A stretch of 32,628 nucleotides of DNA from Alphaproteobacteria bacterium. GTDB taxonomy: Bacteria; Pseudomonadota; Alphaproteobacteria; DATDPM01. The stretch is from NCBI GenBank assembly GCA_049691095.1, contig JBAVNO010000027.1, positions 1 to 32,628 on the forward strand. The letters run 5' to 3'. Below the pieces are notes generated by a model, which did no database searches, was not told the DNA's origin, and saw only the letters and a program-made list of their open reading frames with translations. The translations under genes and the position numbers were made by a program. The first letter of the stretch is position 1. Each line of letters starts with the position of its first letter. Below are positions 5,415 through 10,675 of the stretch, one piece after another.

Positions 5415-5723
5415 ATGGACGAATCCACCCGCACCGCGCTCGAGGCGGCCGCGTTCCGCCGCCTGGTGCAGCACCTGCGCGATCATCCCGAGGTCCAGAA
5501 CATCGATCTGATGAATCTGGCCAGCTTCTGCCGCAACTGCCTGTCCAAATGGTATCGCGCCGCGGCCGAGGAAAAGGGGCTCGCCATGACTTACGACGAG
5601 GCCCGCGAGATCGTCTACGGCATGCCCTACAAGGAATGGCAGGCCAAGTTCCAGAAAGAGGCTACCAAGGAACAGCTCGAGGCCGTCGCGGAGACCCAGG
5701 CCCAGGCCGAGCAGGGCCGCTAA
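5415..5723 (+). CDS. DUF1244 family protein
   Basis: Small ORF with NLASFCRNCLSKWY and YGMPYKEWQ motifs typical of DUF1244. GGAGG lies 6 nt upstream of ATG 5415; an in-frame GTG at 5412 is less well spaced. Confidence 0.8.
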   Translation: MDESTRTALEAAAFRRLVQHLRDHPEVQNIDLMNLASFCRNCLSKWYRAAAEEKGLAMTYDEAREIVYGMPYKEWQAKFQKEATKEQLEAVAETQAQAEQGR

Positions 5724-5847
5724 AGACGTCGGCGGAGTCTGCGCGCGTGTCTTGCCCGCGGGGCGGCGCGCCGGTATGGTCCTGCGTCCGCGCGAGCGCA
5801 TTCCGCGGCGGACGGTCCCAAGCTTCATTCCTGGTCGGAGTTGCACC

Positions 5848-6108
5848 ATGGCCAAAACCGGCGGCATCGCCGCGAACCATCTGCGTTCGTTCATCGAGCG
5901 CATCGAGCGCCTGGAAACGGACAAGGCGGCGCTCGCCGCCGACATCCGCGAAGTCTATGCGGAGGCCAAGGCCGGCGGCTTCGAGCCCAAGGTGATGCGC
6001 AAGGTGATCGCGATGCGCAAGAAGGACGCGGACGATCTCGCCGCCGAACAGGCGACGCTCGATCTCTACACGCGGGCGCTCGGCATGGCCCGCGAAGCGG
6101 CGGAATAG
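5848..6108 (+). CDS. gapR: DUF2312/UPF0335 nucleoid-associated protein, GapR-like
   Basis: 86 aa from ATG 5848. LRSFIERIERLETDKAALAADIREVYAEAKAGGFEPKVMRKVIAMRKKD closely parallels Caulobacter GapR. Confidence 0.8.
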   Translation: MAKTGGIAANHLRSFIERIERLETDKAALAADIREVYAEAKAGGFEPKVMRKVIAMRKKDADDLAAEQATLDLYTRALGMAREAAE

Positions 6109-6127
6109 GCACCCACGGCGCGCGGGC

Positions 6128-6712
6128 CTAGGGGCGCCCGCCGACGTCCTTGGCGGCGGCGAAGGCCGGCTCTTTCCCGCCGCTCACCTCGAAATGAATC
6201 CACATGCCGGAGCGGGCGTGGCCGGGCGCGCCGCAGATCATGAGATATTTGCCCGCGGTTGCGGCCTTGAAGCGGAAATCATCCTTTTCGCCGCCGGCGA
6301 TTCCGGCCTCGGGGTCGCGCGAATAGGCGCGGGGGATCGCCACCTCGGCACGGCCCGCCGTCTCGGGCATTTCCTCCTTGGTGTAGGTCTTTGTGAGGAC
6401 GATGCTGTGGGGCAGGTTGCTGTCGTTGTTGGTGAACTTGATCTCGACCGTCCAGCCCGCGGGCACGGTGACGGTGGCGTCGCCGTCGTGATAGCCGTTG
6501 TAATTGAGGGCGCTGTTGTTGCCGTTCCATCCCGAAACGATGTCGAGCACGACCGTCTTGGCCGCGGCATCGGCCGTCATCCACGACACGGCCCCGGCCG
6601 AAGCGCTCTCGCCGGCCGGCGCGGCCGATGCAAAGGCGAGCGACAGGACGGCAGCAAGGGCGGGGAGGAGCCGGCGGGCGGGGCGAGGAAGCGAGTCGGT
6701 CCGTGTCGGCAT
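6128..6712 (-). CDS. Secreted type-1 copper protein, sulfocyanin-like cupredoxin
   Basis: Start at ATG 6712 with AAAGGA upstream. Signal peptide with an RR motif (RPARRLLPALAAVLSLAFASA). VPAGWTVEIKFTNNDSNLPHS and ICGAPGHARSGMW supply the His/Cys/His/Met copper ligand pattern seen in SoxE-type sulfocyanins. Confidence 0.75.
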   Translation of the reverse strand: MPTRTDSLPRPARRLLPALAAVLSLAFASAAPAGESASAGAVSWMTADAAAKTVVLDIVSGWNGNNSALNYNGYHDGDATVTVPAGWTVEIKFTNNDSNLPHSIVLTKTYTKEEMPETAGRAEVAIPRAYSRDPEAGIAGGEKDDFRFKAATAGKYLMICGAPGHARSGMWIHFEVSGGKEPAFAAAKDVGGRP

Positions 6713-6768
6713 GATGGTCCTTTCGTTGGATTCGTCCACTAGGGCCGCGGCCGAATGATTTTACCCAA

Positions 6769-6797
6769 GAAAAAAGGACGGGGCCAACGCCCCGTCC
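6769..6797 (-). terminator. Rho-independent terminator between the PQQ dehydrogenase and cupredoxin genes
   Basis: On the minus strand: GGACGGGGC-GTTG-GCCCCGTCC (9-bp GC stem) followed by TTTTTTC. Confidence 0.75.
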
Positions 6798-6820
6798 AAG
6801 ATCTCGCCTGATGGAGAGCC

Positions 6821-6858
6821 GCGACGCGCGGGCCGGCTCGAACCGGGCCGCGCGACGC
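6821..6858. repeat. Long imperfect inverted repeat directly after the dehydrogenase stop codon
   Basis: GCGACGCGCGGGCCGG-CTCGAA-CCGGGCCGCGCGACGC: 16-nt arms with 2 symmetric mismatches. Confidence 0.6.
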
Positions 6859-6865
6859 CGCTTGC

Positions 6866-8560
6866 TCAGTCGGCCCCGAAGACGATGATCGAATCGCCGC
6901 CGTGGAAGTTGAGCTGGAAGTTTCCGCCCGCTGCGACCGCGATGCGCTGCTTCCCGTCCACCTTGAACGACATCGGCGCGGAGTTGACGCCGGCGCCCGC
7001 CTGGAACGACCACAGCGACTTGCCGGACTTCGCGTCATAGGCCTTGAACAGCCCGTTGCCTTCGCCGGCGAACACGAGTCCGCCCTTGGTGGTGAGCGTG
7101 CCGCCGATCATCGGCTGCTCGGTCTTCTGCTGCCAGACGATCTCGCCGGTGTCGATGTTCACCGCCGACACGTTGCCCCATTGGGCCTCGCCCGGGATGG
7201 CCTTGAACGCGCCGCCGAGCCACAGCTTGCCCTTCTCCCAAGGCACGCTCTTCACCTCGTAGTGCATCGGCTGGTGCAGGTTGACGTAATAGACCATGTG
7301 CGTGTTCGGATTGAACGCGCCCGGCGACCATTCCACGCCGCCGTTGGCCCCGGGAAGCATGCGCGTGCCCTCTCCCTCGGTGGGCAGCGCGAACAGGTTC
7401 TCGTGGGGCACCATCGGCTTCGAACGGCGGATGAGCTTGCCGGTCTTCCGGTCGTGGACATAGACCCATCCCGTCTTGCCGCCGTGGATGACGACCGGAA
7501 CCATCTTGCCGCTTTCGTCCTTGGCGGTGGCGAGAATCGGCGGTGACACCGAATCGAGATCCCACACGTCGTGGGGGACGTATTGATACGCCCATACGAT
7601 CTCGCCGGTATCGGCCTTCAACGCCAGGAGCGAGTCGGACCACCGGTTGTCGCCGGGACGCAGGGTTCCGTCGAGATCGGGAGACGGGTTGCCCGCAGTG
7701 GCGAAGATCATGCCGGATTCGGGATCGACGGCATTGGTCATCCAGTTGCCGGCGCCGCCGAATTTCCAGGCGTCCTTGTGCCCGCCGGATGCGACTGCGG
7801 CCTTCTCGGCCGCGATATCGCGATGCAGGTCGTTCTGGCCGTCGGCCTTGGCGACGTACACGCCTTCCCAGCCCTTGGCGCCATCGGGAGCGGCGTCGTC
7901 GGGGGCGGGGATGGTATGGGTGCGCCACACCAGTTCGCCGGTCTTGGCGTTATAGGCGCTGATGAATCCGCGAATGCCGTACTCGCCGCCCGAGATGCCG
8001 AGGATCACCGTGTCCTTGTAGATGGTGGGCGCGTGGGTCTCGGAATATCCGTATTCGGGATCGGCGACCTGGGTCTCCCACTTCACTTCGCCGGTCTTCT
8101 TGTCCAGCGCAATGAGCATGGCATCGAGCGTGCCCATGTAGACGTTGTCTCCCAACACCGCCACGCCGCGGTTGTTGGGGCCGCAGCAGAAGATGGTGGT
8201 GCCCAGCTTATGTTCGTGATGCCAAAGCAGCTTGCCGGTCTTGGCGTCGAGCGCGAAGACGTGGTTGTAGGGCGTGGTGACGTACATCACGTCGTCGTCG
8301 ACGATCGGCGTGTTCTCGAACGAACCCAGCACGCCGGTCTGGAACATCCATTTGACCTTGAGGTTCTTGACCGTCTTGACGTTGATCTGGTCGTTCGGTG
8401 AATACCGCATTTGGCCGAGATCGCCGCCGTAGACCAGCCACTCGTCGCCCTGGTTCTTGCCGGACGTCAGCTCCTGCCACGGCTCGGCCGCGGCGAAATG
8501 GTTCGCCCCCATCGCTACGGCAGCCGCCAAAAGTGCCTTAGGTAGAATCCTTGCCTTCAT
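6866..8560 (-). CDS. PQQ-dependent alcohol dehydrogenase, methanol/ethanol family, with a lanthanide-type D-x-D motif
   Basis: 564 aa with a signal peptide. Vicinal Cys pair (FCCGPNNRG). Metal and PQQ ligands GGEYG (Glu), GNW (Asn) and PHDVWDLD (catalytic Asp plus a second Asp two residues on). Propeller-type repeats run throughout. Confidence 0.9.
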   Translation of the reverse strand: MKARILPKALLAAAVAMGANHFAAAEPWQELTSGKNQGDEWLVYGGDLGQMRYSPNDQINVKTVKNLKVKWMFQTGVLGSFENTPIVDDDVMYVTTPYNHVFALDAKTGKLLWHHEHKLGTTIFCCGPNNRGVAVLGDNVYMGTLDAMLIALDKKTGEVKWETQVADPEYGYSETHAPTIYKDTVILGISGGEYGIRGFISAYNAKTGELVWRTHTIPAPDDAAPDGAKGWEGVYVAKADGQNDLHRDIAAEKAAVASGGHKDAWKFGGAGNWMTNAVDPESGMIFATAGNPSPDLDGTLRPGDNRWSDSLLALKADTGEIVWAYQYVPHDVWDLDSVSPPILATAKDESGKMVPVVIHGGKTGWVYVHDRKTGKLIRRSKPMVPHENLFALPTEGEGTRMLPGANGGVEWSPGAFNPNTHMVYYVNLHQPMHYEVKSVPWEKGKLWLGGAFKAIPGEAQWGNVSAVNIDTGEIVWQQKTEQPMIGGTLTTKGGLVFAGEGNGLFKAYDAKSGKSLWSFQAGAGVNSAPMSFKVDGKQRIAVAAGGNFQLNFHGGDSIIVFGAD

Positions 8561-8792
8561 CGTGCCATCCTCCCGGTTGTGATGACGCGGATGAAAAAGC
8601 GGCGTCCGCCTTTCCCCGGCACCCGCGTGGTGAGCCGGTCTTCTGGAGTACGGTCACGCACGAAAAAACGCCTCGGCCTCTGTCTTGCGACAGGTCGTGA
8701 CCATATCCGCCGGCCAATTTTGCATTCGAACGCGGCAAAGCTAACACGTCCCTCGAAAGGCCGTCCATTAAGCTTTGGTCAGATTCTAATTC

Positions 8793-9425
8793 TCAGCCGC
8801 CGACTTCATGCTGCACCTGCTCAGTGAGCGAGCGCAGCTTCTTCTCCACATAGTTCAGGCGGTAGCACAGGAAATCCGCTTCCTCTTCCGAGTCGTCCTT
8901 GTTGCGGAAATTGAATTTGCGAGCCGCCTTGATGTCTTGGCGCTTCGATTCCGCGTCGGGCGAGTTGGGCAGATCGGCCAGCATCCGGTCGTCGTCCTTG
9001 ACCGCGTCGTCCAGGATGATGGCGCGGATCTTCATGTTGCGGATTCCCGACAGGATCGCGCCTCTCAGCGCGTTGGTTTCGTCCACCATGCCGCGGAAGG
9101 CGAGAAGCAGGGTGTGCTGCTTCTCCGCCCCGGTGCCGGCCTGTTTGGCCAGATCGGAGATCGCCTTGCGGCCGCTGGCGGGCGGATTTTCCGGATTGGT
9201 GGCGAACGTCACCAGCTTGCTTACGGCCTGGTCCTGGTGCCAGTCGCCGTCGGCCGCGGGCGCCGGGCCGCCCCAAATCTCATCGGCGGTCAGCGCTTCC
9301 TTGTACGGGTTCTTGCAAGGCCAGTTCTCGATCTCGGTCGAGCCTGCCGCAGCCGCAAGCGGCGCCGCGGCCAAGCCCAGCACCGCGAACGAGACCAGTG
9401 CCGCGGCGATACGGACGGTGTTCAT
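8793..9425 (-). CDS. Secreted hypothetical protein; no family recognised
   Basis: Start at ATG 9425 with AGGGAGGG upstream. Signal peptide MNTVRIAAALVSFAVLGLAAAPLAAAAG. The mature part is charged and helical with two Cys. Coding call rests on ORF length, the RBS and the signal peptide only. Confidence 0.6.
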   Translation of the reverse strand: MNTVRIAAALVSFAVLGLAAAPLAAAAGSTEIENWPCKNPYKEALTADEIWGGPAPAADGDWHQDQAVSKLVTFATNPENPPASGRKAISDLAKQAGTGAEKQHTLLLAFRGMVDETNALRGAILSGIRNMKIRAIILDDAVKDDDRMLADLPNSPDAESKRQDIKAARKFNFRNKDDSEEEADFLCYRLNYVEKKLRSLTEQVQHEVGG

Positions 9426-9498
9426 TCTGCCCTCCCTGGCGTGGCTGCGGAGCGTCGACGCCCGCGCATTTCCGGCATGATCCGCCACGGCCGCGGCG

Positions 9499-9516
9499 CA
9501 AGTCAAACAAGTCAAA
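9499..9516. repeat. 9-bp direct repeat x2 (CAAGTCAAA) in a divergent promoter region
   Basis: Perfect tandem copies at 9499-9507 and 9508-9516. Confidence 0.9.
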
Positions 9517-9619
9517 TCGGTCCCGGCGGCCCGGTCGCCCGGCGGCCGGCCGGGGCAAGAGCGGGCGTGGGCCGCACCGGCGTTCGCCGTTGGTGATTCC
9601 CGTCCGCTGGGCTATATGA

Positions 9620-9642
9620 GGGGGCCGGCGGGGCCGGCCCCC
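9620..9642. repeat. GC hairpin (10-bp stem) in the epimerase upstream region
   Basis: GGGGGCCGGC-GGG-GCCGGCCCCC, directly after a CTATAT -10-like hexamer. Confidence 0.7.
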
Positions 9643-9663
9643 AAGACGATCCCCCAAGACGGT
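9638..9663. repeat. 13-bp tandem repeat x2 (CCCCCAAGACGAT / CCCCCAAGACGGT)
   Basis: Two adjacent copies with one mismatch. They overlap the 3' arm of the hairpin. Confidence 0.9.
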
Positions 9664-9694
9664 TCCAACGCGGCGGACAGAGAGACCAGCGACG

Positions 9695-10675
9695 ATGAGC
9701 ATCCTGCTAACCGGGGCCGCGGGCTTCATCGGTTTCCATACCGCCAGCGCCTTGTTGGCGCGGGGCGAGCGGGTCGTCGGCGTCGACGACATGAACGCCT
9801 ATTACGACGTGCGCCTCAAGGAGGCGCGGCTCGCGCGGCTGGTGGACCGAGCGGGCTTCGCGTTCCACAAGCTCGACGTCGCCGACCGCGGCGCGATCGA
9901 TCGTCTGATGGCGGGCGAGCCGGACATCGACCGGGTCATTCATCTCGCGGCCCAGGCGGGCGTGCGCTACTCGCTCGAGAACCCCTTCGCCTACACGCAC
10001 GCCAATGTCGAAGGCCAGCTCGTTCTTCTGGAGGCGGCGCGCAGGCTCAAGGGCCTTCGTCACTTCGTCTATGCGAGTTCGTCGTCGGTCTACGGGGGCA
10101 ACATCAAATTGCCGTTCTCGGTCGACGACCGGGTCGACAATCCGGTGTCGATCTACGCGGCCACCAAGAAATCCGCCGAGCTGATCGCGCATTGCTACAG
10201 CCATCTCTTTCGCCTGCCGTGCTCGGGCCTGCGGTTCTTCACCGTCTATGGGCCGTGGGGCCGTCCGGACATGTCGGCCTACATTTTCACCCGGGCGATT
10301 CTGGCCGGTGAACCGCTGCCGGTGTTCAATCACGGCGACATGAAGCGCGACTTCACCTACGTCGACGACATCGTCGCCGGCGTCATCGCGTGCCTCGACC
10401 ATGCGCCCCGTGACGGGGGCGCCGCGCCGCCCCACCGCATCTACAACCTGGGCAGTCACCGCCCCGAGCCGCTGCTGCGGTTCATCGCGATCATCGAGCG
10501 CGAGCTGGGGGTGAAGGCGAAGCTGAAGATGGAGCCGATGCAGCCCGGCGACGTGAAGGAAACCTACGCCGACATCGACTCGAGCCGCCGCGACTTCGGG
10601 TTCGATCCCGCCACCACCATCGACGAGGGTTTGCCGCGCTTCGTCGCCTGGTACCGCGAGTACCACAAGGCGTAG
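9695..10675 (+). CDS. NAD-dependent epimerase, UDP-glucuronate 4-epimerase-like (extended SDR)
   Basis: GAAGFIGFH Rossmann motif, YASSSSVYG, YAATKKSAE (YxxxK) and FTVYGPWGRPDM are typical of UDP-glucuronate/UDP-sugar 4-epimerases. Confidence 0.88.
   Translation: MSILLTGAAGFIGFHTASALLARGERVVGVDDMNAYYDVRLKEARLARLVDRAGFAFHKLDVADRGAIDRLMAGEPDIDRVIHLAAQAGVRYSLENPFAYTHANVEGQLVLLEAARRLKGLRHFVYASSSSVYGGNIKLPFSVDDRVDNPVSIYAATKKSAELIAHCYSHLFRLPCSGLRFFTVYGPWGRPDMSAYIFTRAILAGEPLPVFNHGDMKRDFTYVDDIVAGVIACLDHAPRDGGAAPPHRIYNLGSHRPEPLLRFIAIIERELGVKAKLKMEPMQPGDVKETYADIDSSRRDFGFDPATTIDEGLPRFVAWYREYHKA

Follow-up and report, generated by a model that had tools for sequence, protein, structure and literature searches.

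Soluble propeller quinoproteins that have neither a haem nor a membrane domain need a soluble one-electron acceptor, and to our knowledge all characterised soluble alcohol and methanol dehydrogenases containing pyrroloquinoline quinone (PQQ), namely MxaFI, XoxF, ExaA/ExaF and PedE/PedH, are re-oxidised by dedicated c-type cytochromes. We asked which acceptor serves a PQQ dehydrogenase encoded on contig JBAVNO010000027.1, a fragment of an alphaproteobacterial metagenome-assembled genome (MAG); the whole stretch that was analysed, 32.6 kb with roughly 67% G+C, is called the window below. Three genes lie in a row on its minus strand and encode, in 5' to 3' order, a secreted protein of 210 amino acids (aa), a PQQ propeller protein of 564 aa and a SoxE-domain cupredoxin of 194 aa. 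An earlier note on this DNA had stated that the dehydrogenase gene adjoins a gene for a secreted type-1 copper protein on the same strand, and profile searches together with ligand alignments confirmed both identities. Its observation that the locus has neither a CxxCH gene nor xoxJ was also borne out: six-frame translation of the window gave two occurrences of CxxCH, each in a short and implausible reading frame, and in Pfam scans of about 33 plausible window genes, cytochrome c, MoxJ/XoxJ-type binding proteins and pqq genes were all absent. Taking gene order and residues together, we lean towards the view that the PQQ dehydrogenase gives its electrons to the type-1 copper protein encoded beside it, and that the three genes would form a periplasmic oxidation module.

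We first describe the dehydrogenase. Its reading frame (6866..8560(-)) starts with ATG, has a signal-peptide-like N-terminus and encodes a predicted eight-bladed periplasmic enzyme, as judged from profile scores and alignment to PedH and XoxF; the length of 564 aa and the CCGPNNRG vicinal-disulfide loop reported in the earlier note were both found in this frame. Note that the NCBI call (MGB8273833.1, 548 aa) begins 16 codons 3' of the ATG at 8560 (window 8513-8560(-)) and loses the signal peptide. Since the homologues all carry N-terminal signal sequences, the 564-aa start appears more plausible than the 548-aa start. The protein matched PF01011 with an E value of 5e-89 (300 bits against a cut-off of 26.7), and passed the methanol/ethanol family profile TIGR03075 marginally, with 486.2 bits against a cut-off of 480.05; for comparison, the canonical XoxF paralogue of one related locus reached 701 bits. 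The top match among solved structures was PedH (6zcv, E 3e-92), and similar scores were obtained for PedH (6zcv/6zcw), XoxF5 (6dam), ADH IIB, ExaA and MxaF. Alignment to PedH and XoxF placed the vicinal pair at Cys125-Cys126, the metal ligands at Glu193 and Asn291 and the catalytic Asp at Asp334; Lys362 stands at the position of the PQQ-contacting Arg of methanol dehydrogenase (MDH), XoxF and PedH. Two residues past Asp334 there is an additional Asp, Asp336 (PHDVWDLD; the corresponding motifs are WDFD in PedH and WDYD in XoxF). The Cys-Cys pair, Glu193, Asn291, Asp334 and Asp336 did not vary when 11 diverse homologues were aligned, and of the 77 clade members taken from species genomes, 74 have WDLD or WDFD and every one has the CCGPN loop. 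The additional Asp separates lanthanide from calcium enzymes, as established for XoxF, ExaF and PedH. Because Asp336 corresponds to this residue, the dehydrogenase is probably lanthanide-dependent.

The homologue search returned at least 8,000 candidates, and the clade to which the dehydrogenase belongs is common in soil and aquatic metagenomes and present in cultured Azospirillum species. Its members are about 547-580 aa long and share at least 47% identity (median 58%). The window enzyme is 39% identical to PedH and 33-35% identical to XoxF5 and XoxF paralogues; for the clade as a whole, no identity above 40% was seen to PedH, XoxF5 or four XoxF paralogues of Gemmatimonadaceae, whereas PedH and XoxF share 42-43% with each other. 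In a neighbour-joining tree with six outgroup sequences only (PedH, XoxF5 and the four XoxF paralogues of related loci, thus without MxaF, ExaA and XoxF1-4), the clade was monophyletic. The phylogenetic position, a point raised in the earlier note, is thus outside XoxF and PedH on both the tree and the identities, and judged by these comparisons the dehydrogenase represents a clade of its own within the methanol/ethanol quinoprotein family. One homologue with 66% identity, SAJ59294.1, bears the depositor's name 'pqq-dependent alcohol dehydrogenase type 9', a single entry whose name hints at the classification of Keltjens et al. 2014.

The cupredoxin is encoded in a reading frame at 6128..6739(-), with a probable ATG at 6712 that gives a protein of 194 aa (6128..6712(-)), the same as the NCBI gene call, where it is named 'sulfocyanin-like copper-binding protein'. 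It carries an N-terminal signal sequence, and profile, ligands and fold are those of a single-domain type-1 copper protein, which is predicted to be secreted. Specifically, it matched the SoxE domain PF06525 with 84.9 bits against a cut-off of 21, over profile positions 7-140 of 149. LPHS and CGAPGHARSGMW line up with the rusticyanin copper ligands His85/Cys138/His143/Met148, so that the ligands of the window protein are His102, Cys160, His165 and Met170, and the segment CGAPGHARSGM bears the pattern C-x4-H-x4-M. All four ligands were invariant in 19 homologues; a failure of the ligands to align with those of cupredoxins, which the earlier note had named as grounds for giving up its claim, was therefore not observed. 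In an AlphaFold2 (AF2) model (pLDDT 86) the protein folds as a beta sandwich, and Foldseek ranked rusticyanin and auracyanin, both single-domain respiratory carriers, as its best matches in the PDB. The earlier label 'sulfocyanin-like cupredoxin' held as far as the SoxE domain is concerned. Sulfocyanin itself is overstated, because the protein scored 79.9 bits with the sulfocyanin equivalog TIGR03094, under the cut-off of 168.4; it was likewise under the cut-off of the rusticyanin equivalog TIGR03095 (39.5 against 146.7 bits). It is best described as a predicted bacterial SoxE-domain type-1 copper protein, not sulfocyanin proper. In addition, the subfamily has a conserved C-terminal tail, ...G-x-x-G-R-P/R, after the copper domain (window 6128-6160(-); alignment columns 296-311).

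We then examined whether the gene pair is conserved. In the closest relatives, at 86% and 80% identity, the entire neighbourhood is the same as in the window, and because such synteny says nothing alone, a wider sample was taken that comprised 80 species genomes with the dehydrogenase clade. Cupredoxin homologues were located by tblastn and counted as directly downstream when they lay within 0.8 kb. About 1.1 Mb of flanks from the 80 genomes contained 75 cupredoxin matches, 47 of them no more than 0.8 kb directly downstream of the dehydrogenase and on the same strand. Of the 28 alphaproteobacterial genomes that could be assessed, 26, including the cultured Azospirillum canadense and A. soli, had a canonical C-x4-H-x4-M cupredoxin directly downstream in the same orientation, and the remaining two had a cupredoxin 3.6 and 6.3 kb downstream of the dehydrogenase. 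The same arrangement with a canonical cupredoxin was found in 13 of 39 assessable Gemmatimonadota, in all three genomes of other affiliation and in none of three Geminicoccaceae. Among gamma methanotrophs, Methyloprofundus and Methylomarinum have a cupredoxin directly downstream, with overlapping stop and start codons. The genes that flank the pair are wholly different between lineages. The linkage also held in reverse: three cupredoxin homologues (50-57% identity) all directly follow a dehydrogenase of the clade in a different neighbourhood. In two of these three loci the dehydrogenase stop is the cupredoxin start, as in translational coupling, and in all three a gene of about 200-212 aa without known function precedes the dehydrogenase and the cupredoxin. 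Moreover, pairwise identities of dehydrogenase and cupredoxin were correlated over 41 pairs (r = 0.83, Mantel p <= 0.001); partners inherited together should show this, and the shared species phylogeny contributes to it as well. The adjacency of dehydrogenase and cupredoxin is not chance. A lack of conserved linkage in relatives, which would have spoken against the pairing proposed in the earlier note, was not what we saw; the pair is kept in Alphaproteobacteria, gamma methanotrophs, Gemmatimonadota and others. Conservation in most relatives and in several phyla suggests that copper carries the electrons of the dehydrogenase.

Some loci in this survey deserve separate mention. A 2.8-kb contig binned as Vicinamibacterales (DATIEW010000670.1, L014) has the alphaproteobacterial three-gene order with 70% dehydrogenase identity, and may be mis-binned. 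In 19 further Gemmatimonadales, a SoxE paralogue is found only upstream of the dehydrogenase, mostly about 2.1-2.5 kb off and mostly on the opposite strand. An upstream SoxE-domain paralogue of this kind was seen at L057:5182-5775(-), L076 about 5476-5868(-), L061:7230-7790(-) and about 20 other Gemmatimonadales loci. The sequences inspected read CGVPGHALAGE, with Glu in place of the axial Met, which may be an unusual copper site; in the paralogue of L050 both the Cys and the His ligands are lost. More distant SoxE-like genes in a plasmid collection (37-41% identity) were set aside as uninformative for the subfamily; two of their loci were examined, and neither gene lies beside a PQQ enzyme. 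One of them is on pSymA of Sinorhizobium meliloti 1021 (1068516-1069151; L087:6863-7498(+)), where a SoxE-like frame with 37% identity reads C-ARQT-H-LMDG-H, with His at the axial Met position. It has no PQQ enzyme alongside and no entry in the PLSDB gene table, and its neighbours are a reverse-transcriptase-like frame, possibly of a group II intron, and a putative regulator with an RND-type pump.

The earlier note overlooked a third conserved gene, which lies upstream of the dehydrogenase. It is listed as a reading frame from TTG at 9515, and its probable start is Met31 at 9425, giving a predicted secreted helical protein of 210 aa (8793..9425(-)). By tblastn, almost every locus of Alphaproteobacteria and Geminicoccaceae has a homologue with 26-74% identity directly 5' of the dehydrogenase (for example L010:7295-7945 and L023:3207-3854); in Geminicoccaceae it is kept although the cupredoxin is missing at the locus. 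Members of the family are about 200-215 aa long; in their alignment, a W-P-C close to the N-terminus of the mature protein and one further Cys are invariant. Among clusters at 50% identity, 302 represent this family. No Pfam or NCBIfam profile matched the protein, and a sequence profile search gave no meaningful relative in the PDB. The AF2 model (pLDDT 84) is all-helical with a helical hairpin of about 50 residues, for which Foldseek returned only generic coiled-coil or BAR-like matches (best E 0.2). From its sequence, we regard the protein as a member of an undescribed family of secreted helical proteins that is tightly linked to the dehydrogenase.

These observations can be combined into a mechanism. 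The PQQ dehydrogenase, probably with a lanthanide ion beside PQQ, would oxidise an alcohol or aldehyde substrate, the class being presumptive. From reduced PQQ, the two electrons would then pass one at a time to the type-1 copper protein of the gene immediately downstream, which would serve this dehydrogenase as cytochrome cL, XoxG or c550 serve MxaF, XoxF, ExaA and PedH. The copper protein would hand the electrons to the respiratory chain, either to a terminal oxidase directly or to a c-type cytochrome encoded elsewhere, and the 210-aa helical periplasmic protein is a putative accessory factor. The transfer from PQQ to copper that we infer here is thermodynamically reasonable because the PQQ/PQQH2 potential is lower than typical cupredoxin potentials.

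Transcription of the pair in the window requires comment. The earlier note had placed a strong terminator between the two genes, and a hairpin followed by a T-run is indeed present at 6767..6797(-). Its sequence, GGACGGGGC-GTTG-GCCCCGTCC and then TTTTTTCTT (6797-6767(-)), folds into an intrinsic-terminator-like structure of -21.6 kcal/mol with a 9-bp stem, eight G-C pairs and a 4-nt loop. Overlapping it, a sigma-70-like match, TTGGCC-18-TAAAAT (6758..6787(-)), agrees with the consensus at 9 of 12 positions, and the scanned region contained two such sites, where shuffled sequence would give 0.4. This is weak evidence, and a separate cupredoxin promoter within 6758..6787(-) is possible. An Rfam scan of 5700-9800 gave no riboswitch or leader near threshold. 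Intergenic hairpins at the same position, most of them with a T-run, were also found in many lineages (L006-L010, L014, L015, L025, L033, L041, L054, L070 and L072), with energies of -15 to -37 kcal/mol, which suggests a conserved intercistronic terminator or stabiliser and not an accident of one contig. In other relatives, the dehydrogenase and cupredoxin genes overlap. Since hairpins recur in relatives while other lineages overlap the genes, the hairpin is not a strong argument against partnership; partial termination or differential stability would fit it as well as separate transcription.

Several points weigh against the proposal that the cupredoxin is the acceptor. The support consists of gene order and residues. 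Part of the linkage signal comes from related, syntenic genomes, and part of the mirror-tree correlation from the shared species phylogeny. The terminator and the promoter-like site between the genes may mean independent expression in the window. Moreover, no nearby cupredoxin was found in Geminicoccaceae (0/3), in two gamma loci and in seven Gemmatimonadota, and because of such members the copper protein is either not obligatory or encoded elsewhere in the genomes that have none at the locus. A xoxG-like gene may exist elsewhere in the genome, beyond the 32.6-kb window, and the small c-type cytochrome of some gamma methanotrophs, described below, could be the direct acceptor there.

The best surviving alternative, which we still consider unlikely, is that the true acceptor, a XoxG- or c550-like cytochrome c, has its gene elsewhere, and that the cupredoxin acts one step later or in a parallel respiratory branch; the order would be dehydrogenase, cytochrome c, cupredoxin and oxidase, like azurin after the haem domain of ADH IIB. 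It is kept alive by the members without a cupredoxin and by the cytochrome in methanotroph operons, and the window covers only 32.6 kb of the genome. The earlier note had held that a cognate cytochrome c gene, if found to be the functional partner, would tell against its proposal; none is present in the window, and a CxxCH frame lies within 6 kb of the clade dehydrogenase in only 6 of 79 related loci. Three of the six belong to a separate canonical cluster, in which XoxF (701 bits) is accompanied by a MoxJ-type protein (TIGR03871, 288 bits) and a cytochrome of the c type; two are small cytochromes that head a gamma-methanotroph run, and one is a cytochrome P460-like protein. A further CxxCH neighbour in Gemmatimonadales was rejected as a cytochrome, as it is a thioredoxin/redoxin-fold protein with CPTCH. 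In one alphaproteobacterial MAG a cytochrome P460-domain protein, the N-terminal half of which consists of repeated 'NPCNPCAA' units, is encoded directly downstream of the dehydrogenase (L017:9848-10795(+)).

The gamma-methanotroph run, seen in the Methyloprofundus and Methylomarinum loci (L004:2868-10161(+) and L035:2915-10191(+)), is a tightly packed, same-strand series of six genes that encode, in order, a small Cytochrome_CBB3-type protein, a PAS histidine kinase, a response regulator, a response-regulator-PAS-GGDEF-EAL protein, the dehydrogenase and, last, the cupredoxin. This order suggests c-di-GMP-linked regulation and a possible cytochrome partner, and the cytochrome that opens it favours the alternative. 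So do several Gemmatimonadaceae without a cupredoxin, in which a canonical xoxF-moxJ(-cytochrome c) cluster lies about 2.5 kb downstream (L065:12081-15959, L069:12182-15722, L080:12641-16344 and L082:6542-9394) and could share its cytochrome; in these genomes the clade dehydrogenase and the xoxF system may have a common acceptor. Against a distant cytochrome stand the 73 of 79 loci without a CxxCH gene within 6 kb, most with the cupredoxin immediately adjacent, whereas canonical systems keep the cytochrome beside the dehydrogenase. The overlap of dehydrogenase and cupredoxin genes in several lineages also argues for the copper protein. So does a contrast within Gemmatimonadaceae loci, where it is the second, canonical XoxF (701 bits) that has genes for a MoxJ-type protein and a c-type cytochrome after it.

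It is less probable still that the adjacency reflects co-regulation or the shared ancestry of a periplasmic gene island without a direct redox partnership. The copper protein would then be, for example, a general respiratory carrier or serve in copper handling, and the dehydrogenase would reduce, for example, a membrane quinone-linked partner. The terminator and the possible own promoter of the cupredoxin in the window would agree with such an island, as would the clade members that miss the neighbouring cupredoxin and the distant SoxE-like proteins on rhizobial plasmids that are not beside any PQQ enzyme. However, gene order and strand are kept across phyla despite unrelated flanks, the reverse linkage holds, and the complete type-1 ligand set points to electron transfer and not to copper trafficking. 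The need of soluble propeller quinoproteins for a soluble one-electron acceptor also speaks against it. Finally, we regard it as very improbable that the propeller protein is no working PQQ dehydrogenase but cofactor-less or otherwise functioning, like 'empty quinoprotein' groups: the barely passed TIGR03075 cut-off (486 vs 480), the sub-threshold match to the acido_non_PQQ profile (340 vs 650 bits) and the Lys in place of the PQQ-contacting Arg would fit this, but that match is far under its cut-off, and the clade shows no variation in the Cys-Cys pair, the metal-binding Glu, Asn and Asp or the catalytic Asp.

Re-oxidation of the dehydrogenase by the adjacent copper protein is thus the reading that we prefer for the window. 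A wider claim is put forward tentatively, as a possibility that falls somewhat short of probable: throughout a widespread lanthanide-type clade in Alphaproteobacteria, Gammaproteobacteria including methanotrophs, and Gemmatimonadota, cytochrome c may be replaced by a dedicated sulfocyanin-like blue copper protein together with the helical accessory protein, which would constitute a haem-free route from alcohol or aldehyde to a terminal oxidase. If true, this would be the first PQQ-to-copper electron-transfer pair. Use of copper by the clade would add a new class of redox partner to PQQ and lanthanide enzymology, would link the rare-earth-dependent oxidation of carbon in soils and methanotroph habitats to the copper available there, and would account for the failure of surveys for xoxF-xoxG-xoxJ clusters to pick up these genes; it would also offer a simple haem-free two-protein module for bioelectrochemistry. 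A direct test is feasible because the clade occurs in cultured Azospirillum species. In the window itself, the three genes are surrounded by housekeeping functions (GapR, DUF1244, GCS2 ligase, FGase, epimerase, acyl-CoA ligase, M3 peptidase, PntAB and purEK).

With respect to known systems, the dehydrogenase resembles XoxF, ExaF and PedH in being an eight-bladed periplasmic PQQ propeller with a vicinal Cys-Cys pair, Glu/Asn/Asp metal ligands and the additional Asp. It differs in that its clade is separate, shorter and marked by the CCGPN loop, and in that a cupredoxin gene is its neighbour where those enzymes have the cytochromes XoxG and c550 (ExaB/PedF) and XoxJ. The cupredoxin shares with sulfocyanin (SoxE) and rusticyanin the SoxE Pfam domain and the His...Cys-x4-His-x4-Met pattern, and rusticyanin is its closest solved fold. 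Archaeal sulfocyanin and rusticyanin are respiratory one-electron carriers that feed terminal oxidases. Unlike them, the window protein is bacterial, is associated with neither a SoxM oxidase nor an iron-oxidation operon, and probably has a cleavable signal peptide, not a membrane anchor.

Transfer from a quinoprotein to a cupredoxin is known for enzymes with protein-derived tryptophan tryptophylquinone (TTQ), and the pairs of methylamine dehydrogenase with amicyanin and of aromatic amine dehydrogenase with azurin, in each of which a periplasmic quinoprotein has its type-1 copper acceptor in the same cluster, are our working analogy. These amine dehydrogenases have another fold and other subunits, while the window enzyme is a predicted PQQ enzyme; amicyanin, moreover, belongs to the plastocyanin-like PF00127 group and the window cupredoxin to the SoxE-domain group. 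Electrons from a PQQ alcohol dehydrogenase are also known to reach a cupredoxin in Pseudomonas putida HK5, where azurin accepts them from the quinohaemoprotein ADH IIB. There they first pass through a covalently attached haem c domain, whereas the window enzyme has no haem domain or CxxCH. A pairing of PQQ dehydrogenase and cupredoxin was not described in the full-text literature searched, in which matches on Methanosarcina DIET, M. extorquens PA1 and Hyphomicrobium proved unrelated to it; Keltjens et al. 2014 and Huang et al. 2019 lay outside that search, and an earlier mention is possible. Within this literature, the nearest published idea is the blue-copper hypothesis for heterotrophic marine Thaumarchaeota, whose PQQ dehydrogenases were proposed to reduce blue copper proteins where cytochrome c is absent (PMC7300363). 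That proposal was based on the genome-wide absence of cytochrome c, without gene linkage, and concerns enzymes without the Cys-Cys motif; in contrast, the organisms considered here are bacteria that possess cytochromes, and the evidence is the conserved adjacency of the two genes.

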